A stretch of DNA of 63,695 nucleotides, counting the filler, from Globobulimina sp. (lineage: Eukaryota), in the NCBI GenBank assembly GCA_003354225.1. It is 45 parts of 45 records of this genome, joined end to end, with 100 filler letters (N's around TTAATTAATTAA, not from the genome) between each part and the next. Parts side by side here need not be neighbours in the genome. Positions count along the whole stretch, not along the records: positions 17,023 to 18,340 come from PIVH01018762.1; 44 more parts are not named here. One strand, written 5' to 3'. Positions 11,376 through 63,695 of this stretch are shown in pieces. The notes beneath the pieces were generated by a model. That model made no database searches. It was not told the DNA's origin and was given only the letters and a program-made list of their open reading frames with translations. The position numbers and the translations under genes were made by a program. Each line of letters starts with the position of its first letter. The stretch's first letter is position 1.

Positions 11376-12092
11376 CTATCCTTTAATTCTTTTATAATTG
11401 TCATTAAATCTAAAACTTTTTCATTTAAATCATTTAACTGTGCCTCCATAACAATTAATTGCATATCCTTATCATCAAAAGAATAGGTTTTGAGTTTTCC
11501 AATTTTATGATCACAACAATCCTCATCATCTGCGTCAATCTATGCAGTCATTTATATGTTTTTATATTTATAGAATATTTATTTTGTACAAATGTACTGT
11601 GGTTTGCACAACAAATATATCAAATTACTAAACAATATCCTCAGCGGACTGCCTTTGTGCTTGTTTTTCAATCAATATATGTTCGTATGCATCAATACTC
11701 GATGCAGAGGATGTGTCCATGTCTTCTGTTTCCGAGTCTTGCTGATATCCAATGGGAGTGCTTAATGGCGAAATTGGTGATATATCATAATGATATTTAT
11801 GACTGCCATGTTTTGGCGATGGATTTTGTGATTTATATTGACTCTCAGTGGATGTCTATATTTATGTGGAAATGTAGATTGTTATCAGTTATATATTTAT
11901 ATTATTGCATACTTGATGAAACAAAGGGAAATCATAAGTAACGCCATGTGTTGGCTCTATATCCACATACGCCTGAAGTACAAATGTCTATTTTTAGTGA
12001 TATAGTAAATGATATAGATTTATTTTTCCATATATATATACCCTTTGCGCGGTGTGCATATCCAAACAACTGCAATCGAGTGAAGCGGACAT
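11376..12092 (-). CDS. Hypothetical four-exon protein (absent from the ORF track)
   Basis: ATG at 12092. Three phase-0 GT-AG introns splice to one open frame MSASLDCSC...QR/TFVLQAY...HQ/TSTESQY...EDI/IDADDED...IKG, then TAG. Confidence 0.65.
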
Positions 12093-17022: not shown

Positions 17023-18340
17023 AGTAGTAGAGAAGGGGACACTTGACACCTTTTTTATATGTAAACAAAAAAAAAATTACTTTTTAAAGTATATTTTATA
17101 AATTTTCAATTTAAAATATTTTGTATTTAGAAAATTTTATTTTTGTATAATACAGACATTTTTTTGAAAATCAGTGACAAACATAAAATTATATTTAAAT
17201 AATATCCTCTTCAAGTGTTTCATCCAGAGGTTCACTGAAGATAAAATTAGGAGGTAACAATTTTCGCTTCACATAAAATGGTTGAAGTCCTGTCCGAGTA
17301 GCGGTGGTGGTATAGATGGCGGTTTTGTTTCTTATAGTGCGGAAGGAAACATTTGTTGCTTGAACTGCAATGCCGTTGTAAAGCGCATCCTTGAAAGTGT
17401 TATATCGTAATATTTCTTTGTTGGTTTTTGCTGACACTCCTTTAGCTGCATGTTTCAATGTATTTTCAGATTCATCCGCCATAATGTAACATTTGGCTGA
17501 TAGACCTATGAACGACTTGGCCTGTTTTTCTACTTTGAAAAGACCAGGTTGTCTCTTAGTATAAGCTTCAGCTTCAGGAGTTCGTTCATCCACTATGAAA
17601 TCATATTTCTTTTCTTCATATTCATCTCGCAAATGAGGCAGAACGAGTGATTCTGGATTGTTACTACCCCAACTAACAATCACACTGTCTGTGTCTGAAC
17701 CACATATAGCCAACTTCTTGTGATCAAAATATTTTAAGATAAAACTGTGAACAAACCGTAACAAATTTAACTTTGCAGCACCAAATACAGCAACAGCAAT
17801 TTGAATTGGTAGATCGTATTTTATAGTTTTAGGTTTTAATTGTACTTCAACATAACCCTGACTCAATTCCAAATGGCTAAGGTAAGATGGACCATTTACA
17901 AACTTTTTGAATCCTTCACCTGTTGTAATTTTATAAGTGTTACGTTTCTGAGGGTTGTATGCAAATTTTCCCCAAGCGCTTGCGCCCATATGTTTTGCCA
18001 AGTTAGTTTTCACAGTATTTTTACTTCTGTCACCTTCTCTGCGCATATCTGCAACGATAGTTTCATATTTTCGAAAGGGAAAGTGATTTCCTTGGAACTG
18101 GATTACCTGGTGAACTTTTATAATATTGACACCTATACTGCAGAGGTATTTCAACAATGGAGTGTATATCAAGATTTTTTTGCCTGACATGCAAGCAACC
18201 AAATTCTTTCTCGGTTTTATGAAATCTAATCCATTTTGTTCACCCACTTTCAATACTTCCTCTGGTATCATTTTTCTATTAATGTTCAGGTGTCGAATAA
18301 TTGGAGGAAACATCTTAAGTTTTTCATAATTCGGATGGAC
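17023..18340. mobile_element. Terminal fragment of a Polinton/Maverick-like element
   Basis: Contig starts with AGTAGTAG, 172 bp beyond the stop of an intronless protein-primed PolB gene. Confidence 0.65.
17195..18340 (-). CDS. Protein-primed family B DNA polymerase, C-terminal half
   Basis: FPPII, motif B KHMGASAWGKF, motif C SDTDS, PGLFKVE, SAKCY (KxY), AKGVS, YVKR. Confidence 0.85.
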   Translation of the reverse strand, partial: VHPNYEKLKMFPPIIRHLNINRKMIPEEVLKVGEQNGLDFIKPRKNLVACMSGKKILIYTPLLKYLCSIGVNIIKVHQVIQFQGNHFPFRKYETIVADMRREGDRSKNTVKTNLAKHMGASAWGKFAYNPQKRNTYKITTGEGFKKFVNGPSYLSHLELSQGYVEVQLKPKTIKYDLPIQIAVAVFGAAKLNLLRFVHSFILKYFDHKKLAICGSDTDSVIVSWGSNNPESLVLPHLRDEYEEKKYDFIVDERTPEAEAYTKRQPGLFKVEKQAKSFIGLSAKCYIMADESENTLKHAAKGVSAKTNKEILRYNTFKDALYNGIAVQATNVSFRTIRNKTAIYTTTATRTGLQPFYVKRKLLPPNFIFSEPLDETLEEDII

Positions 18341-21176: not shown

Positions 21177-21461
21177 NNNNNNNNNNNNNNNNNNNNNNNN
21201 NNNNNNNNNNNNNNNNNNNNTTAATTAATTAANNNNNNNNNNNNNNNNNNNNNNNNNNNNNNNNNNNNNNNNNNNNAGTGAATTTTCGTTTTATCTGCAA
21301 TAGGCTCAATTATTTATCGATATTTTGATATCATAATATTGTTTTTGGTTTCAGCCAAGCAAATTTATTGAATTGTACTAAACAAAAGCAAACGTTATAG
21401 TTTGTTTTAATATCGGTGTTTTATTCGGATCGGTGTATAACCACAGGAGAGGGTTTCGTGT

Positions 21462-22594
21462 ATGGGTTCAAAAAATCGGGATGACAAAATAACAGCGTCT
21501 GAGATTAAACTGAGGTACTATTATATTGTGGGAATTGTTGCCACAACCATTGGTGTATTGATGGTTGCTTTGCTCAATTTTACAACACCCTTAGATTTAA
21601 TCAGGAACAAAATACTGGGACAAGATGGTGTAATAACTTCGGAAATTATCCTCAGGTTCTTTTTACCGAGACTAGGCTTTGTTTTAGGGATTTCATATCT
21701 GCTGGTTGTCATTGGTATTAATAGAATGCTTAAACCAGTATCCATATGTCTTGGTATTTATAAAAATAAAAAAGTACCCTCTCAGAACCAAATCGAAGCT
21801 GCAAAAATTCGAATTTTAAACATGCACTATAAATTTGTGCCTATGAATGTCTTTATATGGATTTTAATCCCTGTATTTATCGGTTTGTCAATGGTCTTGG
21901 AAGGTGTTTTGGACTATAGAACGGTTATTATTTTATCAGCCAGAGCCAGTATGGTTGGTTTAATTTCTTCTGCCATAGCATCCCAGAGGATCGAATCGAT
22001 ATCAAGAATGCAGTTGATTCCCTTTTTCTTTCCCAAGGGCAATATTAGCCAATTGGCTGGGATAACAATGAATTCCATATCAAAGCGAATTCAATTAGTA
22101 AATCGTTTGAGTGCAGTGGTCCCTGTGACCATATTAATGGTTACATTGCTCACGCTTCAATGGGAGCTTGAAGTAAGTTCTGTTTCAGCAATTCAATATG
22201 GCCGGGGAATGACTTTATTTACGTTTGCATTGCTGGTTTGGACCATAATATTCTCAAAGGAATTAAACCGATTGTTGAGTAAGAATATTGTCGACCCGAT
22301 TAATGATTTGGTGGTCGTACTTAAAAATGTACAAAGTGGACATTTTGATAAAAGAGCACAGGTGGTTTCCAATGATGAAATTGGATATGCCGGCGATGTT
22401 GTGAATGAGATGACTTTGGGTCTTCAAGAAAGAGAATCTATGCAGCAATCACTCAATTTAGCCAGAGAGATTCAACAAAATCTTCTTCCAAAATTCAACC
22501 CAGATCTTCCGGGTATAGATATTGCCGGTAAAAGTGTTTATTGTGATGAAACAGGAGGAGACTATTATGATTTTATCACGCCCAATAAAAATGG
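21462..22594 (+). CDS. Bacterial membrane HAMP + SpoIIE/RsbU (PP2C) phosphatase, 3' truncated
   Basis: Shine-Dalgarno AGGAG upstream, TM helices, HAMP (P...L....V..G.F......DEIG), LAREIQQNLLP, ETGGDYYDF. Confidence 0.9.
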
Positions 22595-24843: not shown

Positions 24844-25257
24844 TTACTGTGTTGAAACAATATCATTCATATTGTCATTATCTAACAAAGGTGCAAAATC
24901 TTCAAAATTACATTCAATATCCAATATCCTTATAATTGTGACCCATTCACGTGATCCAATTATCCTTTTCTTGCGACATCTTTGTTTCTTTCGAATCCAT
25001 ATTTTTTTCACAATTTGTGTTATTTCCTCAACAATAGCAACCACCCTCGGACCGGGAATTAACGGTCTTCCAATCAATGAATATTCCCGCGATGAGACAC
25101 ACAAAATATTATCAAATATTACCTTTTCACCCACTTTGTACGACATTCCTGTCTCTTTGTTATAATACAATGATAACATAATTCGATCCCCTTTCATCAC
25201 TTTAAATTGCCGATTCCTTTTTTTTTTACTTATAATCAAAGCCACACACAAATTCAA
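24844..25257 (-). CDS. Ribosomal protein bL21 (probably mitochondrial, divergent; start unclear)
   Basis: QFKVMKGDRI...VGEKVIFDNILCV...IGRPLI...VVAIVEE...G.RE..T.IRI..I. Confidence 0.75.
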   Translation of the reverse strand: MNLCVALIISKKKRNRQFKVMKGDRIMLSLYYNKETGMSYKVGEKVIFDNILCVSSREYSLIGRPLIPGPRVVAIVEEITQIVKKIWIRKKQRCRKKRIIGSREWVTIIRILDIECNFEDFAPLLDNDNMNDIVSTQ

Positions 25258-25530
25258 GAAATTTCTAACTGATGGTGGTCGGGAGCAAACATAGCAAATT
25301 TATCAGGCAAATCGCCAAATGATACATGCTTTTCATGTGCTTTTACTAAGTGATTAATAGCAGTGCGGTTTACGCAGTTTTTTGGTGAGGGGAAGCGCGG
25401 ATATTTTAGTTGTGGTGGTATATGATATTCNNNNNNNNNNNNNNNNNNNNNNNNNNNNNNNNNNNNNNNNNNNNTTAATTAATTAANNNNNNNNNNNNNN
25501 NNNNNNNNNNNNNNNNNNNNNNNNNNNNNN

Positions 25531-28366: not shown

Positions 28367-28802
28367 AGATGATACTGAGTTGAATATAGAGAGATTGTCG
28401 GTATATTCATCGAGATACACTAGCAAAAAAGTAGAGTTTTTTAGCAGATCAGAATGGCATTTTAAGAAAAGCATTTCGTTGAATGCCTCCTTAGTAATGG
28501 CCTACAATAATTATGGCTGTTTATTGCGTCGATTGGAGAAACATAACGGAGCAAAGGAAATGTTTGCCAAAGCATTGAGCATCGATCCAAAGTTTGTTAT
28601 GGCCAAAAGGAATTTGGATAGAGCACAAATGAAAGAGAAAGGACTAGATCCATACAAACAAGACCATACTCACAATGATAATAATAATAACGGTAAAACA
28701 AAATTTAAAAGAGCAATAAAAGCAAGCGGTAATAATAGGACTATAAACGATGATATGTATGCTAACCAAAAAATGAATGATAGCAATTGTATTGTTATGT
28801 GA
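28367..28802 (+). CDS. TPR protein C-terminus
   Basis: AYNNYGCLL......AKEMFAKALSIDPKFVMAKRNL. Confidence 0.75.
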
Positions 28803-29224
28803 TTATGATAAATATTTAAAGTGTTTCTGTTTTTCCTTTTGTAGCTATTTTTAATATATGACATTAGATGTACAGGTACTTATTATGTAATTTTTGATTT
28901 CATCCTCATTTTTTTTTCCTTTTTGTTTTATTGAATATTATATTGTTTTGATAACTATACATAAATAATCAGTGATGGACACAGAACCTGAACTCACTGA
29001 GTAATTCAGTAAATTCACAAAATTCTTGATTCACTGAGCTCAAAATTCACTAAATTCAGAAAACCTACATTCAGAATTCGGGAGTTCACCCTGCCTACCT
29101 AACATAATACATAAAGTATTAAACAATTATTCAAACACTAATGGGATATCATATATAATTGTTCAACAAAAATGTATATATACAGCCAAAATAAAAATAA
29201 TTTTACAGACACTACACCCATTTT

Positions 29225-29357
29225 TTGGCAAGGTTTTTGGGTTAGCTAGAGTGGTTTTCCAACTTCGAATACTAGGATTACTTAAGTTAAAAACCACTCT
29301 AGCTAACCCAAAAACTTTGCTAATCGTTGAAACGAAACAAAGGCAAAAAAGCTAATT
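29225..29357. repeat. Interspersed repeat family A, inverted pair (34-bp arms, 31-bp spacer)
   Basis: 29225-29258 is the reverse complement of 29290-29323 (2 mismatches); core AAACCACTCTAGCTAACCCAAAAACCTTGCCAA. Confidence 0.9.
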
Positions 29358-29784
29358 ATGGTTGTTCTTATATTGCATCCGTCAGATTTACCATTCAAAA
29401 AGTCGAGCGGAGAATAATTTGATAGATATATCAACTAATATTAAATCAAACACACAAAACAAAGACATTCAAGACAGCACTCGTACAAACACTTAACACG
29501 AATTCACAAAAAACACACACAAAAGGTTCAAAAATGAATTCAACACAATTACAAGGAGCCTACTTACAATTGCAATTATAATGGAAATTGAATCAAAGAC
29601 CTCGGCTCCCAAATATTTGGCCTTAAATTCCAAAACTCAAATAATTGCTCGATTGGTTCGTCATATAACAAGTTAAATTTCTTTNNNNNNNNNNNNNNNN
29701 NNNNNNNNNNNNNNNNNNNNNNNNNNNNTTAATTAATTAANNNNNNNNNNNNNNNNNNNNNNNNNNNNNNNNNNNNNNNNNNNN

Positions 29785-32520: not shown

Positions 32521-32621
32521 NNNNNNNNNNNNNNNNNNNNNNNNNNNNNNNNNNNNNNNNNNNNTTAATTAATTAANNNNNNNNNNNNNNNNNNNNNNNN
32601 NNNNNNNNNNNNNNNNNNNNT

Positions 32622-33548
32622 CAGCGAGCGTGGTTACAACAGAACGAATCCGCCCAATCCATATTAATTGTATTAATCTTACAATGTTATATCAGCAGTA
32701 ATTTATATAACTTGGCGCATAAATTCGTGGAGAAAGCGGAATTTCCGTCCGGTTCAGAGTCTCAGTTTTATGCACGATATCATTTTTATCGCGGCTGTAT
32801 TGATTGTGTGCAGTTGAATTATAGCGACTCATTATACCATTTGGAACAAGCGATCCGTAGGGCGCCGCAAACCGGAACTTATGGCTTCAAAATCATCACA
32901 ACGCAGTGGCTCATTGTGATCCAATTGCTAATGGGCGATGTCCCGGATCGCACTATATTTAAACCAAAATTTGATGGAAATTCCACCAAAAATAATCCGC
33001 AATTAAATGAGAAATTATTACCGTTTTTGGAGATTACACAATGTGTAAAAGAAGGGGAGTTAAAAGAGTATGAAATGGTGTTAAATAAATATAATAATTT
33101 GTTCATAGCCTGTGGTTTGAGCAAAATATTACTGCGGTTGAGACATAATGTGATTAAGACGGGTTTAAGGAAAATCAATAAAGCGTACAGTAAGATATCG
33201 CTACCTGATATTGCCAATAAATTAGGACTTAGTTCGGAGAAAAATGCCTATTTTATTGTCTCTAAAGCAATCCGCGATGGTGTGATAAATGCGAAAATTG
33301 ATTATAAAAATAAATTTGTTGAATCTTCGCAAAATATTCATGTTTATAATACATCAGAACCGTATAATAATTATTCACAGCGTATTAAATTTTGTTTGGA
33401 AATAAGGAATAATGCGGTTAAAAATTTAAGATATCCACCAAAGGATGATGAAGAGGAAGAAAATAATAAAGATAGTGATGATGAGTTTGTTTCTCCTGAA
33501 GAAATTGCTGAAATGATTCAAAAACATTTTGAAGAAGACGATGATTAA
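32622..33548 (+). CDS. RPN3: 26S proteasome regulatory subunit Rpn3/PSMD3, 5' truncated
   Basis: ARYHFYRG.I..VQLNY, QAIRRAPQ, QLLMGDVPDR, RLRHNVIKTGLRKINKAYSKISL, KAIRDGVINA, RIKFCL, LRYP. Confidence 0.95.
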   Translation, partial: QRAWLQQNESAQSILIVLILQCYISSNLYNLAHKFVEKAEFPSGSESQFYARYHFYRGCIDCVQLNYSDSLYHLEQAIRRAPQTGTYGFKIITTQWLIVIQLLMGDVPDRTIFKPKFDGNSTKNNPQLNEKLLPFLEITQCVKEGELKEYEMVLNKYNNLFIACGLSKILLRLRHNVIKTGLRKINKAYSKISLPDIANKLGLSSEKNAYFIVSKAIRDGVINAKIDYKNKFVESSQNIHVYNTSEPYNNYSQRIKFCLEIRNNAVKNLRYPPKDDEEEENNKDSDDEFVSPEEIAEMIQKHFEEDDD

Positions 33549-33752
33549 CATATATAACATAATATGTTTTTATTTGATGATTAACATATATAAAATAACA
33601 GTTTCAAACCCAGCAATACAGTCTGACTGTATTCTTCATATTTATAATCCAAATGCAACTCTGTGGTACATTGTTTACTCTGTTACTATCACGTATGCAG
33701 TCAACAAATCCGCGCATTACAGGCACAACACAAACGTTAAACGTAACAAGCT

Positions 33753-33850
33753 AACTTCGAATACTATGTTGAAAACCACTCTAGCTAACCCAAAAACCTT
33801 GCCAATCGTTGAAATGAAATGAAACGAAACTAAGCCAAAAAAGTTAAATA
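33753..33850 (+). repeat. Repeat family A copy
   Basis: AACTTCGAATACTA...AAAACCACTCTAGCTAACCCAAAAACCTTGCCAATCGTTGAAA, shared with 29261-29340. Confidence 0.9.
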
Positions 33851-34040
33851 TAACGAACAAATAATTCGGTAACATGGATGTGGTAACATGTGCGTATGGT
33901 TGATATGATTCATTTGCAATCTATAAATCTCCACTGTGNNNNNNNNNNNNNNNNNNNNNNNNNNNNNNNNNNNNNNNNNNNNTTAATTAATTAANNNNNN
34001 NNNNNNNNNNNNNNNNNNNNNNNNNNNNNNNNNNNNNNCA

Positions 34041-46928: not shown

Positions 46929-47992
46929 AATGAAAGTTAGTGCTTGTTGCTGACAAAGTTGTTTGAGAAAGGGTTTGTTTAAGCTGTTTATTTATGAGTT
47001 TAAAAACTGCTAAATCAAGGGAAATATATTTAACTTATTTTATACTTTAAAACCTTAAAACGCAACATTTTGGCAACCTCTAATTTAGTAACAAAAACCA
47101 TTAAATTAGCTTTTGAGTTACAAACCAAACACCATGCCAACGTTTCGGAATAAATTAGTCAATAAATTAGCATATCACGCAACACATTGATCAATAACCA
47201 AACCATTGATAGTAATATAACCATCTTATAGATGAATACAATACACCAAACTCTCAAATATTATAATAAGTACAATGTTACCGATGGAAACCATCTCAGC
47301 GACTATATGAGCTATTCATTTTGGGAGAAATAACCGCTGACAATTGAAAATATGGTCTGTTTTTGCCAAATTCAATCGAATTCAAAGCTGGTAACGTTAA
47401 CATTCTGCGGTACCAAACAATAGAGTTTTTGCTTTTAGTTCATTTAATGAATCAACATTTAAATTTTCTATTTTCACTAACATTTGACTGCTTCACTCTG
47501 CAAGTAAGTATGACGAGAATGAACATCGTAAGAGTATATTGTGCATAAAATAGGAATAAAGCATCATTGTGCTGGCAAATGAGTACCTTACATTACGTGC
47601 AATGTGTTTTGTGTTTGCGATTTTGCGCATGCAATTTTGTACAGATATACCTTAATATGATACCAATGCAAAGGCCATACCGCGGTTTGCAAAGGAAACA
47701 ACAGAAAAATGTGCCAATACACATCAATGTGGCTGGAATGGGTAGTAAATGTTGACTCAGTTTAAGGCATTTTCGTAAGCGTCTTTTTTGATAAATATCA
47801 CATTGGCTCTTATCCCAATCAATGTTTTGTGGATTAAATTCCATATTTGGCGCAGATATAATCTCACTGAAAATTCAAAAAATCCAATAAAAAACATTGT
47901 GATATATGCATTAATTTGTGAATCCATCCATTCAACACCTGACATAAGTGACGGCCAATGCATTTTCTTTTAGTTGTTTGTTTGTGTACGTG

Positions 47993-48063
47993 CGGTCGCA
48001 TCAGGATTTGAACCTGAATCTTCTGGATCCATCCATCCAGGGCTCTTCTTGAGCTAAGCGACA
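47993..48063 (-). tRNA. tRNA-like element or pseudo-tRNA with abnormal 8-nt anticodon loop
   Basis: TGTCGCT-TA-GCTC AAGAA GAGC-C-CTGGA TGGATGGA TCCAG-AAGAT-TCAGG TTCAAAT CCTGA-TGCGACC-G. Confidence 0.7.
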
Positions 48064-53662: not shown

Positions 53663-53895
53663 GATTCTCACAAAAACAAAATAACTTTGTTTTCGATGTT
53701 TTTTTAAACAAAATATATATTCGCGTGCAAGGATAAACAATAAAGGGTTCAAACTAAAACAACATTAATTGTTGATNNNNNNNNNNNNNNNNNNNNNNNN
53801 NNNNNNNNNNNNNNNNNNNNTTAATTAATTAANNNNNNNNNNNNNNNNNNNNNNNNNNNNNNNNNNNNNNNNNNNNTCGGGAACACTACTGTATT

Positions 53896-53971
53896 CAAAC
53901 CACTCTAGCTAACCCAAAAACCTTGCCAATCACAAAAGAAGTGTTTAGAAGCTTAAGCCTAAAAAGTCAAA
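53896..53971 (+). repeat. Repeat family A copy
   Basis: About 75 bp nearly identical to 62517-62591. Confidence 0.9.
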
Positions 53972-54020
53972 TATCCACTATATTTACTGTTTAGCCACTG
54001 CTTTTTGTGTAAACACAAAA

Positions 54021-54506
54021 CATGGGGTACCCAAAAACATTTTGTCACGAAAAGACGGAAAAGTATATCTGCTATACAAGTTGTATGCAAATTTCACGAA
54101 AAGTACTTTTCGTGACTATCCCTAATTTCTGAAAATCCAGATAAAAAGTATACAACTTATCGACTATATATGTATGTTTCCATAAATAGTCGTTCATTTC
54201 CTTCTATAAGAAGAATCCTGCATGTATGACTATTGTCTGAAATAAATAGTAAGTATACCGGTCAAAACAAAACACATTATAAAACAACATAAAACATGAT
54301 AAAACATTGATGAAACAGTGTAAAAAACAATACAAAACACATTGTAAAACATAATAAAACACATTATAAAACACCATAAAACAAATTGTAAAACACACAA
54401 AATAATTTATAAAACACAATAAAACATATTGTAAAACATAGTAAAACATTTGACAAAACACAGCAAAACACATTAAAGGGTGTTGCAAAAGTCTGTGTAC
54501 CCCATA
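54021..54506. mobile_element. MITE-like element with ATGGGGTAC terminal inverted repeats and internal AAAACA-rich simple repeat
   Basis: CATGGGGTACCCA...TGTGTACCCCATA; perfect 22-bp palindrome at 54094-54115; no target-site duplication seen. Confidence 0.5.
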
Positions 54507-54945
54507 ATGGCTCCATAACTTGTCATATATGATATGTACAATATTGATTTTTTGTATGACTGTTTATCTATGATACATGTATAACACTTTAATTGTTCTG
54601 TGACACTTTATTTGATACCATATAATGTTAATGGCGTGATATCCCAATCAAATACAATATACTAGGCAACATTACATTGTATTTTGTATCACAACAGATA
54701 TGTATTTGTGATCATATGTATAAATAAAAATTGCAAAATAACTGCTACTTTCTTCACACTTTCTTTTTATTTCCTTTTGTATGTCCTCCATTCCAATCAT
54801 CCATTCATTCATTCATGTTTCCATTTTCAAATCATTCATAATATCCTCCATAATAATCCTCCATAATTAACTGTATATTATTGAATATGTTTTGCGAATT
54901 TGCGTATCGTGTTTGTTTCTTAACTGATTATATCATCGCATGTCC

Positions 54946-55012
54946 ATTACACGGCAGGAGTCGAACCTGCATATTTGGTAAACCAATGCTCTACCAATTG
55001 AGCTACGTGGAT
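54946..55012 (-). tRNA. tRNA-like element or pseudo-tRNA lacking an anticodon loop
   Basis: ATCCACG-TA-GCTC AATTGGTA GAGC-A-TTGGT TT ACCAA-ATAT-GCAGG TTCGACT CCTGC-CGTGTAA-T; consensus A and B boxes. Confidence 0.75.
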
Positions 55013-55458
55013 ATTGTATAATTAGAGATCTTGCAGTTTGATGTGTGTGTAGACTCAGAAGAATGATGTTAAAGTAAGTTTTTTTCTATTGTCTTGAATT
55101 AACTGCAAATTCCAAAACAAAAAGCAAAACACAATAAAACATTTGTAAAACTGCACAAAACACATTATAAAACGCAATAAAACACAATATAAANNNNNNN
55201 NNNNNNNNNNNNNNNNNNNNNNNNNNNNNNNNNNNNNTTAATTAATTAANNNNNNNNNNNNNNNNNNNNNNNNNNNNNNNNNNNNNNNNNNNNTATATTT
55301 CAAAAACGCGTTACGTCACATATACAAAAAGTGATACGTACCATATTTCCAACTAATGTGACGTATCAAAACAAAATTACACTGCGACGTTTTTGGTCTT
55401 GCTGCTATGTTTGCGGTTTTAATTGTGTATTGAAAAAAAAAGAAAAACTTTTACATAC

Positions 55459-60961: not shown

Positions 60962-62107
60962 ATAGTCTGCCATCTCCTCTCCCAACTTAATGGTTGCCGC
61001 CAACAGTTCTTTTCCTTTCAACCCTTTCAATGCCAATTGGCCGCAGGCACCGTCGACGTCCCTCCCGGATGTAGTCGACTTGCGAATGGTGCAAAAGATG
61101 CCATTCTTAATTACTATCTCTTTAAATGCTTCCAGTTGATTCTGATTTGGTGGTTCAAACTTATGTTCATCCCCAATCTCCGTTGGATTGTATGGTATCA
61201 AATTAATGCATATCTTCTCTTTAATACCATCCCCAGCTTCAACAAACAACTTCGACAACGCAATAGCATGCGCTTTAAATGCATTTACATTTCCAATCAT
61301 AATATATTCAATAAATATTTTATTATTTGTGCTGTTAATATGATAAACAATGGCATTCATGATTTTTTTCATAGTGAATGCATTGGAGGTTGGCACAATT
61401 TGCTTCCTTACAACCTGCGAAGGTGCATGCAAACTAATCGCCAGGTTTGCTTTGGGGAAATCGTGTGTGAATAATCTCATTTTAGTCACCACGCCAACGG
61501 TGGATAACGTGATATGATTCCAAGCTAAATTGAATAGGCATCGATCATGCATTCCATGTATGGCTTGTTTTACCTCTTTATAGTTATCCAATGGCTCGCC
61601 CATTCCCATAAACACAATGTTTCTGATGTTGGAATTAGTCAATTTTGCGTGAACTATTTGCTCCAAAATTTCAGCAGCGGTGAGATGTCCGATCAGGCCC
61701 AAACTGCCAGTCGCACAAAATGTGCACGCCATTTTACATCCAATCTGCGAGGATACACAAACGACATTGTGTCCGCCAGAGCGGGTGTCGCTGTGTCGAA
61801 TTATAACGGCTTCGATCATGTTATCATCTTGTAATTGAATTAATAATTTGCTTGTTTTCTTATCTGATGAGGTTGATACCGTTTTTAATGTGGATGTTAA
61901 TGGAACAAAATTTGCTGATAACACTTTTGCTGCTTTTTTCGGTAAACCTGGAATGTCTGAGAATTGTAATGAGGGATTTTTCATCATTAGTCGCCATATT
62001 GTTTTAGCGTGGAGTTCTTTGATTTCATTCTCTTTAAAAAATGCAAGTAATGATTCTTTATCGAATATTGAGTTAGGTTTTAATTCACGTTTACGAAAGG
62101 AAGGCAT
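60962..62107 (-). CDS. rlmN: RlmN/Cfr-family radical SAM RNA methyltransferase, 3' truncated
   Basis: CVSSQIGCKMACTFCATG, VFMGMGEP, TLSTVG, LAISLHA, INLIPYNP, GACGQL. Confidence 0.9.
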
Positions 62108-62516
62108 GGTCAAAACAAACTGTCTGAAAAAGTGTTTTTTTCAGACTATTATCCAGTTTCAGTTGTTATAAAATGTTTATATCTGATATGTTGATACCAT
62201 TCTTGACAATTTCGTGCAAGGTATATTCACTTTTTTTTAGTTTCATTTTATCCATTTCCTGAATCCACCACTTGACAANNNNNNNNNNNNNNNNNNNNNN
62301 NNNNNNNNNNNNNNNNNNNNNNTTAATTAATTAANNNNNNNNNNNNNNNNNNNNNNNNNNNNNNNNNNNNNNNNNNNNTTGATATACTGTACAATTAATT
62401 TAATTTAATTAATGTTGTTAGAGTTATTAAAAGTTTAACCAACTGTCCAAAAATAACAACCCCTTTGTATACCGAAAATTCAATTATAAATTTGTTTTGA
62501 CTTTGTTCTGGATTTG

Positions 62517-62591
62517 CAAACCACTCTAGCTAACCCAAAAACCTTGCCAATCACAAAAGAAGTGTTTAGAAGTTTAAGCCTAAAAAGTCAA
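62517..62591 (+). repeat. Repeat family A copy
   Basis: CAAACCACTCTAGCTAACCCAAAAACCTTGCCAATCACAAAAGAAGTGTTTAGAAG. Confidence 0.9.
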
Positions 62592-62940
62592 GTATAGCAA
62601 ACAGTTTCTCAGATAATTGAATAAAATGTATACAACGTTTAACGATGAGTTCCGATAATCAGAAGTATATCACGTTATTCCGTACAGGCTCACAGCTGAC
62701 AGCTGTGTCGTGACTTTTTTTCTTTAATGCCGTAACATTAAGGTCGAGGAAAAATGTCGGAATTTATAACGAATATTTGAAAACCCTGCAGCTTTGAGAA
62801 AAAAGAAAGTATAAAATGAAAATTATATATGTATAATTATGGAAACTAGTTTATTGTATAATGCATGTACATATATTGTTTACTGTATAGTGAATACATT
62901 ATACAAAGAAAGTATATAACCATTAACCATATTGATGATA

Positions 62941-63695
62941 TTATGTTGTTGTTCTATGTTTAAAATATATTGGTATTACAGGATGGATCCCTCTGTTTAT
63001 ACCCCAGGTTCTTTTAATATTCTGTGGCAAATTATGATTATATATCACATATTTGCTGATCAGCAATGCAAACACAGCGTACATAATTTGCATTGCAATG
63101 CCCTTCCCAACACAGCAATTGTTACAATATCCAAACACCAAAAACGATTTCATTTTATTTCTATTGAATTTACGATCTTTATCTAACCACCGATTTATAT
63201 TAAATTTGGACCCATTTTTCTGATGATAATGCATCGAGAGATGGTTAATTATCACTGTCGATCCTTTATAAATTGTATAACCATTAATATCGACATCATT
63301 CACACATTTATGTGGCAGGCCAAATGGTAAAATAACACCAAATCGTAATATTTCATGAACAAATGCTCGCAAAAAATGTAGTTCATTTTGTAATAGCGAT
63401 GGTTTATACTTATCATATTGCGCCAATTCATTATGTATTTTCCTCTCAAGTTTCGGATATTTGCATAACATAACAAGTCCAAATTCAATGTGTTTTGCGG
63501 TGGTCTCCATCCCCGCACCCAATAAGGCATAAACATCCATTGCTATTTGTTCAATGTCCATATCATTGATCAGTATTTTATTCAGCATCGCCGATTTATT
63601 TTTAATCTCTTTATTCCATTCTGTGGTTTTGCCATAATTCGAGACGCGAACTATTTCATGTTTCGACAAATAATATTTCAAATGCTAAAAAGCAA
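62941..63695 (-). CDS. Cytochrome P450 C-terminal half
   Basis: AGMETT (I-helix), EILR (ExxR), GLPH, FNINRW, heme region FGYCNNCCVG. Confidence 0.85.

Follow-up and report, generated by a model that had tools for sequence, protein, structure and literature searches.

The stretch of DNA analysed here (the window; 63,695 bases from the Globobulimina sp. assembly GCA_003354225.1) includes a contig, at 17023–18340, that probably represents the polymerase-proximal end of a self-synthesizing element of the Polinton/Maverick type (polintovirus-like) from a foraminifera-like protist. The window consists of 45 separate contigs of 1,317–1,319 bp each, ordered by size, which come from unrelated loci and are joined by spacers of the form N44-TTAATTAATTAA-N44; with the spacers left out, it holds 59,295 bp of contig sequence. 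The contig under study is the 13th of the 45 and is 1,318 bp long. An earlier note on this DNA stated that a contig begins exactly at 17023, which is literally true, as one of the spacer-bounded contigs starts there; the DNA to its left is spacer and then another contig, with no link to the one considered here.

The opening bases of the contig at 17023 were confirmed to be AGTAGTAGAGAAGGGG, so the AGTAGT motif described in the earlier note is present, in the published form. The terminal motif AGTAGTAG (17023–17030, plus strand) consists of (AGT)2 plus AG, matches the published Maverick motif and is a candidate 5′ end of the element. In the part of PMC8097293 at hand, which credits Kapitonov and Jurka 2006 in its end-motif account, 5′-(AGT)2//(ACT)2-3′ is the motif that vertebrate Mavericks most often have at their ends, and (AG)3//(CT)3 is the other common form. 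The first six bases at 17023 are identical to the 5′-(AGT)2 of that account; it is therefore reasonable to read 17023 as the terminus of an element. AGTAGT was found 12 times in the contig sequence of the window, counting either strand. The chance of meeting it is about 1e-4 per oriented position and about 2e-4 over both ends of this contig, and the chance that either AGTAGT or (AG)3 stands at one of these ends is about 5e-4. Of the 90 contig ends in the window, a single one bears the AGTAGT motif, and its bearer is the sole pPolB (family B DNA polymerase primed by a protein) contig. These figures are good evidence, though they do not prove it, that the element has its outermost base at 17023. 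An assembly break induced by a microsatellite was considered and rejected, as the repeat spans only 8 nt, which we infer to be too short. To our knowledge, the contig start bears no resemblance to common adapters or primers.

The pPolB gene occupies the rest of the contig. A minus-strand open reading frame (ORF) directed toward the contig start has its TAA stop at 17195–17197 and runs out at 18340, so that the contig carries the C-terminal 381 codons of the gene, open to the contig end (17195–18340, minus strand). The translation matched the Pfam family PF03175 (DNA_pol_B_2, "organellar and viral") with an E value of 3.9e-08 and 33.1 bits, above the cut-off of 25.8, and matched PHROG 1907, annotated as 'DNA polymerase', with an E value of 9.8e-11. 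Three polymerase motifs were located. Motif B (residues 116–124; 17969–17995, minus strand) is present as the variant KHMGASAWG of the family consensus K..GNS.YG; alignment A1 shows no variation at its residues K116, G119, and G124, two of which, K116 and G124, also reach at least 90% conservation in A2, an alignment of 60 sequences, and the A/W variant is common to the closest relatives P0002–P0004. The catalytic motif C, DTDS (residues 216–219; 17684–17695, minus strand), has D216, T217, and S219 invariant and D218 at least 90% conserved in the 60 sequences. The KxY motif reads KCY (residues 283–285; 17486–17494, minus strand), and 90% or more of the same sequences agree at K283 and at Y285. 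For the latter two motifs the codons were also checked. The exonuclease domain with its motifs, motif A, TPR1, and the N-terminal terminal-protein (priming) and vOTU regions fall beyond 18340, off the contig; motif A is visible in the A1 consensus of the full-length relatives. The gene thus encodes a pPolB of the kind found in Polintons and adintoviruses, seen here as the C-terminal part with motifs B, C, and KxY and the region beyond them. The claim that a pPolB gene points toward the end of the contig is borne out by the PF03175 match, the DTDS and KxY motifs, the fold matches described below, and the position of the stop on the minus strand.

The family is large: searches with the polymerase fragment matched 2,457 of its representatives at E ≤ 1e-3, a number that fell to 809 at E ≤ 1e-10 and to 103 at E ≤ 1e-30. 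Among full-length relatives, the closest have lengths of 1,480, 1,482, and 1,376 amino acids (aa; 75%, 73%, and 70% identity, respectively), followed by one of 1,166 aa (42%). The fragment aligns to the relatives from about their residue 1,100 up to 4–5 residues short of their C-termini, and its alignment to P0002 and P0003 is free of gaps over 377 residues. This colinearity indicates that the 3′ end of the gene is genuine and that the part seen is uninterrupted. The gene had been called intact and intronless: the second description holds for the part seen, whereas the first is not supported, as 381 codons are present, against 1,166–1,482 aa in full-length relatives, and the frame is open at 18340. 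Two further features of the full-length relatives were observed. P0002–P0005 carry a Vsr-like endonuclease insertion, which the family profile matched to PDB 1vsr, 1odg, and 1cw0 at an E value of about 7e-5. Such an insertion has already been published for the Polinton polymerase of a marine nematode, according to the portion of PMC10748475 at hand. An OTU-like Cys…His motif was read by eye in the same four proteins, in which Pfam calls no OTU domain. In the accessible part of PMC11071308, Polinton polymerases are described as starting with a terminal-protein domain, after which comes a vOTU-like protease by which it may be released.

An AlphaFold (AF2) model of the fragment, built on the 60-row alignment, had high confidence (predicted local distance difference test score, pLDDT, 93.0; predicted template modelling score, pTM, 0.86). 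Comparison of the model with BFVD gave 23 matches at E ≤ 1e-3, namely 18 to entries named DNA polymerase or PolB, three to a 'structural protein', which belong to densovirus/parvovirus-like records, and two without a name. The top match was a bidnavirus-like polymerase labelled 'parvoviridae sp.' (E 9.1e-17), and the list also contained the PolB of a MELD virus (E 9.5e-15), adintovirus PolBs (E 3.0e-11 and 3.8e-11) and, further down, adenovirus, tectivirus, and phi29-like polymerases. The polymerases of adintoviruses, MELD viruses, and bidnaviruses are therefore the best structural matches (E 9e-17 to 4e-11; TM-score normalized to the query 0.63–0.70); they differ in that sequence identity in these alignments is just 14%–21% and that these viruses are associated with animals. 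A structure search of PDB gave no match at E ≤ 1e-3; the best was the phi29 polymerase (probability 0.99, E 0.04, TM 0.38), a weak match, and by sequence the fragment is nearer to Polinton-type enzymes than to phi29 polymerase. No match was obtained in a sequence-only search of PDB with the fragment. The nearest ESM Atlas clusters were eukaryotic, with PF03175 on 17%–20% of the members in two of three clusters.

Between the stop of the polymerase gene and the contig start lies a non-coding terminal region of 172 bp (17023–17194), which is at the same time the 3′ flank of the gene and a candidate terminal inverted repeat (TIR) or replication origin. No ORF was found in it and its GC content is 18%, in line with the approximately 170 bp of AT-rich DNA before the stop that the earlier note had reported. 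The GC content is uneven within the region, the first 28 nt having 50% and the remaining 144 nt 11.8%. The size of the region falls inside the published range of Maverick TIRs; for vertebrate elements, the part of PMC8097293 at hand gives TIRs of 46–1,447 bp and target duplications of 6 bp. The internal repeats of the contig were only AT-rich low-complexity pairs, none of them specific to the terminus, and a blastn comparison of the contig with the other 44 contigs gave no match.

The gene neighbourhoods of related polymerases were examined through one scan of prokaryotic genome contigs and contigs of metagenome-assembled genomes (MAGs) with the family profile. This gave seven loci (L001, L002, L004, L005, and L006 among them), whose polymerases are 26%–31% identical to the fragment and which presumably represent DNA of eukaryotes or viruses that was placed in MAG bins. 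Beyond the pPolB of L004 (27% identity, E 8e-42) lie an ATPase of the Adeno_IVa2/A32-like type, an rve integrase that includes a chromodomain (E 3.5e-13), several ORFs without a Pfam match, and a weak match to an adenovirus-type protease, which is the textbook Polinton arrangement; the ORFs without a match include those of the capsid region, and Polinton capsids are poorly covered by Pfam. L002 has a weak rve-like ORF after the pPolB, L005 a weak A32-like ATPase, and L006 a capsid/protease module of the L004 type in convergent orientation. The neighbourhoods in these four loci tie the wider polymerase family of the fragment to Polintons; this is evidence at the level of the family and says nothing about the present element itself.

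Two observations on the ends of these loci are recorded here. L004 contains, at 11457–11693, two direct repeats of 85 nt (95% identical, spacing 130 nt) followed by CACTACT; the ACTACT sits 736 nt beyond the protease ORF and 76 nt from the contig end, and looks like a candidate for the true right terminus of a canonical Polinton with the published (ACT)2, the left end being off the contig. In L001 (11087–11333), another AT-rich relative, 247 nt separate the pPolB stop from a contig end; a G/C palindrome comes soon after the stop, and an AGT/ACT end motif is absent.

Several results weigh against the reading of this contig as the end of a Polinton/Maverick-type element. The contig shows about 26% of one defining Polinton gene and nothing else of such an element, and the published end motif comes from vertebrate elements. 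The polymerase is outermost and points outward here, whereas it points inward in most vertebrate Mavericks according to the part of PMC8097293 at hand, in which the cane toad appears as the one published vertebrate exception to the inward pPolB module. With up to three mismatches allowed, the first 16 nt recur nowhere else in the window, and the inverted copy of the terminus that had been proposed as a check was not found there; this counts for little in 59 kb of a fragmented assembly. None of the 76 window ORFs of at least 100 aa matched integrase, capsid, ATPase, or protease families in Pfam. A tblastx comparison with the seven related loci, including the L004 and L002 integrases, matched the pPolB contig alone among the 45, and a tblastn search of the window with 13 relatives likewise gave this contig as its sole match. 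As the window is a sample of 45 random 1.3-kb contigs from a fragmented assembly, the absence of such genes from it is without weight, and the same applies to the linked capsid, packaging ATPase, protease, and integrase genes that the earlier note had suggested looking for, none of which was found in these 59 kb.

The related loci supply the remaining points of this kind. None of the seven begins with AGTAGT or ends with ACTACT, 13 of the 14 ends being true contig ends, and in four of the seven (L002, L004, L005, and L006) further element genes follow beyond the pPolB stop, as against 172 bp only in the present contig. Furthermore, ACTACTACT occurs in L004 (4562–4570), 330 nt past the pPolB stop, and in L006 (982–990), 148 nt past the stop, and in both cases the contig continues into element genes; each occurrence is expected about once in a thousand by a hand estimate with equal base frequencies. 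The motif marks the exact point at which the two arrangements diverge, with a same-strand ATPase in L004 and a convergent protease/capsid module in L006, and in these loci it could represent a junction or some cis element instead of an outer end. A motif of this type downstream of a pPolB is therefore not always the boundary of an element. On this basis, the assembly of the present contig could have broken at a AGTAGTAG that is an internal (ACT)n element or a rearrangement junction, an explanation to which the frequent breaks in the window, where all contigs are short, also lend support. It demands, however, that the break hit the first base of the motif exactly, for which the chance is about 2e-4 to 5e-4, and the position of the motif in L004 and L006, at the very point of divergence, itself resembles a boundary or junction. 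A coincidence of this sort is considered quite unlikely.

The lack of other element genes also bears on whether the polymerase belongs to a different kind of replicon. Linear plasmids encoding a pPolB have TIRs, often an RNA polymerase gene, and neither integrase nor capsid genes. The contig could derive from an organellar or cytoplasmic element, small, linear, and either plasmid-like or polymerase-only, which would share the end chemistry of Polintons but not their integrase and capsid genes. The contigs of the full-length close relatives are 5,914, 7,435, 6,787, and 8,225 bp long, with genes of 3.5–4.4 kb, the pPolB here is outermost and points outward as it often does in linear plasmids, and neither integrase nor capsid was seen in the window. 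On the other hand, short contigs are to be expected in such assemblies and prove nothing, the distant relatives with visible neighbours (L004, L002, and L006) are Polinton-like, the end motif is of the Maverick type, and a protein-mode search of 50,697 phage records with the fragment gave no match. We regard an origin from such a replicon as highly unlikely.

If the contig does carry the polymerase-proximal end of a Polinton/Maverick-type element, the terminal motif would fit a scheme of protein-primed replication. The element would replicate as a linear duplex, and its polymerase would carry an N-terminal terminal-protein domain, which is off the contig here and has been published for Polinton pPolBs. 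Priming by this domain would start synthesis where the template strand has its 3′ end, 3′-TCATCATC. With a tandem trinucleotide at the end, protein-AGT could be made on the internal (second) repeat and then jump back to the extreme end, which would preserve the terminus each time the element is replicated. In this scheme the 172-bp region would act as origin and, given a second copy, also as TIR. Short end repeats are used in protein-primed replication by adenovirus ('jumping back') and phi29 ('sliding back'). What the contig start has in common with these origins is a short direct repeat at the very end of what would be linear DNA, a feature that would enable jumping or sliding back; the contig start differs from them in the sequence of the repeat, whose function here is inferred only.

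Two equally good answers exist as to why the assembly stopped at 17023: the position may be a physical DNA end, or insertion of the element at many sites may have branched the assembly graph at its boundary. In the first case, 17023 would be the physical end of a replicating polintovirus- or adintovirus-like genome with a covalent terminal protein, which would make its source a free linear virus or episome. A free genome would suit the exact agreement of the contig end with the end motif, the ORF part seen, which is free of stops and frameshifts and keeps its catalytic residues, and the fold, which is nearest to polymerases of MELD virus and adintovirus, whose genomes were recovered in free form. 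The data fit a repeat boundary equally, however, virion genes were not found in the window, and the 1.3-kb contig also breaks inside the gene, which we would not expect of a well-covered single-copy episome, a weak point in so fragmented an assembly. The break inside the gene fits either a diverged multi-copy family or mere low coverage, the latter being possible because the host-gene contigs in the window are equally short. A free linear virus or episome is considered unlikely; we lean toward multi-copy DNA that is integrated, the state in which such elements more often occur, a preference that comes from prior expectation and not from any result. The description of 17023 as the physical end of a Polinton-like virus or transposon is reasonable as far as an element terminus is concerned, with a free end and a repeat boundary indistinguishable, and the further claims of an active Polinton-like virus and a free linear replicon go beyond the data, in which nothing separates the two.

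The host assignment was examined with the other contigs of the window, on which Pfam identified EF-hand, ankyrin, protein kinase, DHHC, cytochrome P450, and proteasome lid subunit domains. The proteasome-subunit fragment has 77% and 71% identity to proteins from protist transcriptomes, as against 45% or less for all other eukaryotes, and the foraminifera-like host named in the earlier note is plausible on these grounds. One of these matches carries the label MMETSP1385, which we take to be foraminiferan. The polymerase ORF has a GC content at third codon positions (GC3) of 0.307, compared with 0.29 ± 0.06 in 19 long ORFs, and its relative synonymous codon usage (RSCU) correlation of 0.60 lies within the leave-one-out range of 0.46–0.91. 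GC3 and codon usage are thus in the range of host-like ORFs, indicating that the polymerase probably comes from the same genome as the remaining window contigs. A tRNA gene on another contig favours genomic DNA rather than a transcriptome as the source; beyond a single tRNA, the Rfam and tRNA scans of the window gave no match. The two tools disagree, Rfam calling a tRNA at 54946–55012 (minus strand) and ARAGORN instead an odd tRNA with a four-base anticodon at 47992–48063 (minus strand).

Bacterial-looking ORFs with HAMP, Ribosomal_L21p, and radical SAM domains are present among the eukaryotic contigs at 21441–22592 (plus strand), 24847–25299 (minus strand), and 60962–62140 (minus strand), and the assembly may include some bacterial or organellar DNA. 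In addition, an interspersed repeat of 33–92 nt, 79%–100% identical and partly inverted, is shared by four otherwise unrelated contigs (28367–29684, 32621–33938, 53877–55193, and 62379–63695) and may be a small host repeat or an element resembling a miniature inverted-repeat transposable element (MITE).

Polintons/Mavericks (polintoviruses) are defined by a pPolB together with a retrovirus-like integrase, according to the part of PMC5499653 at hand. The present contig shares with them a protein-primed PolB, (AGT)2 exactly at the end of the sequence, and a short non-coding terminal region, and its distant polymerase relatives are embedded in ATPase–integrase–capsid–protease sets; it differs in that the integrase, the capsid genes, the second TIR, and the 6-bp target duplication are unseen, that the polymerase is outermost and directed outward, and that its host is a rhizarian protist and not an animal. 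Polintons measure 13–25 kb, as against 1,318 bp for this contig, which has no flank beyond 17023. Polintons of Rhizaria have been noted before. A 2019 preprint (10.1101/809541), in the part at hand, describes a 'rhizarian-type' Polinton group with polymerases of Reticulomyxa filosa and also names Paulinella micropora, with no account of termini, and the rhizarian claim is discussed as well in the accessible part of PMC7826189. The element considered here can be likened by description to this group, whose polymerases occur in Rhizaria including a foraminiferan, probably in the same host supergroup. A literature search found papers on Polintons and Reticulomyxa, and for Polinton combined with "foraminifera" there was none among the matches listed. 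The view that such an element in a foraminifera-like host would be poorly described is therefore partly true, and has to be qualified by the Reticulomyxa filosa polymerases and the rhizarian-type group already reported in that preprint.

Polintons occur widely, with rhizarian ones among those described before, and the finding opens no new kind of biology. It is very unlikely that a linear genome, free and capped with protein, has its true physical end at 17023 in a foraminifer, whether as an extrachromosomal polintovirus or as a polymerase-centred element of 6–8 kb, a size that the short contigs of the 70%–75% identical relatives would permit; if it did, the contig would give first access to a protein-primed replicon outside the chromosomes of Foraminifera. 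If, as is probable, the contig is the polymerase-proximal end of a Polinton/Maverick-type element, it would give the exact terminus of such an element in a foraminifera-like protist, and the 28-nt terminal block and the polymerase fragment would be good probes for complete copies, insertion counts, and mobility in this genome. The (AGT)2 end signature, which the part of PMC8097293 at hand documents only for vertebrate Mavericks, would then reach a very distant host, and this would suggest that protein priming has kept its end chemistry throughout the group.

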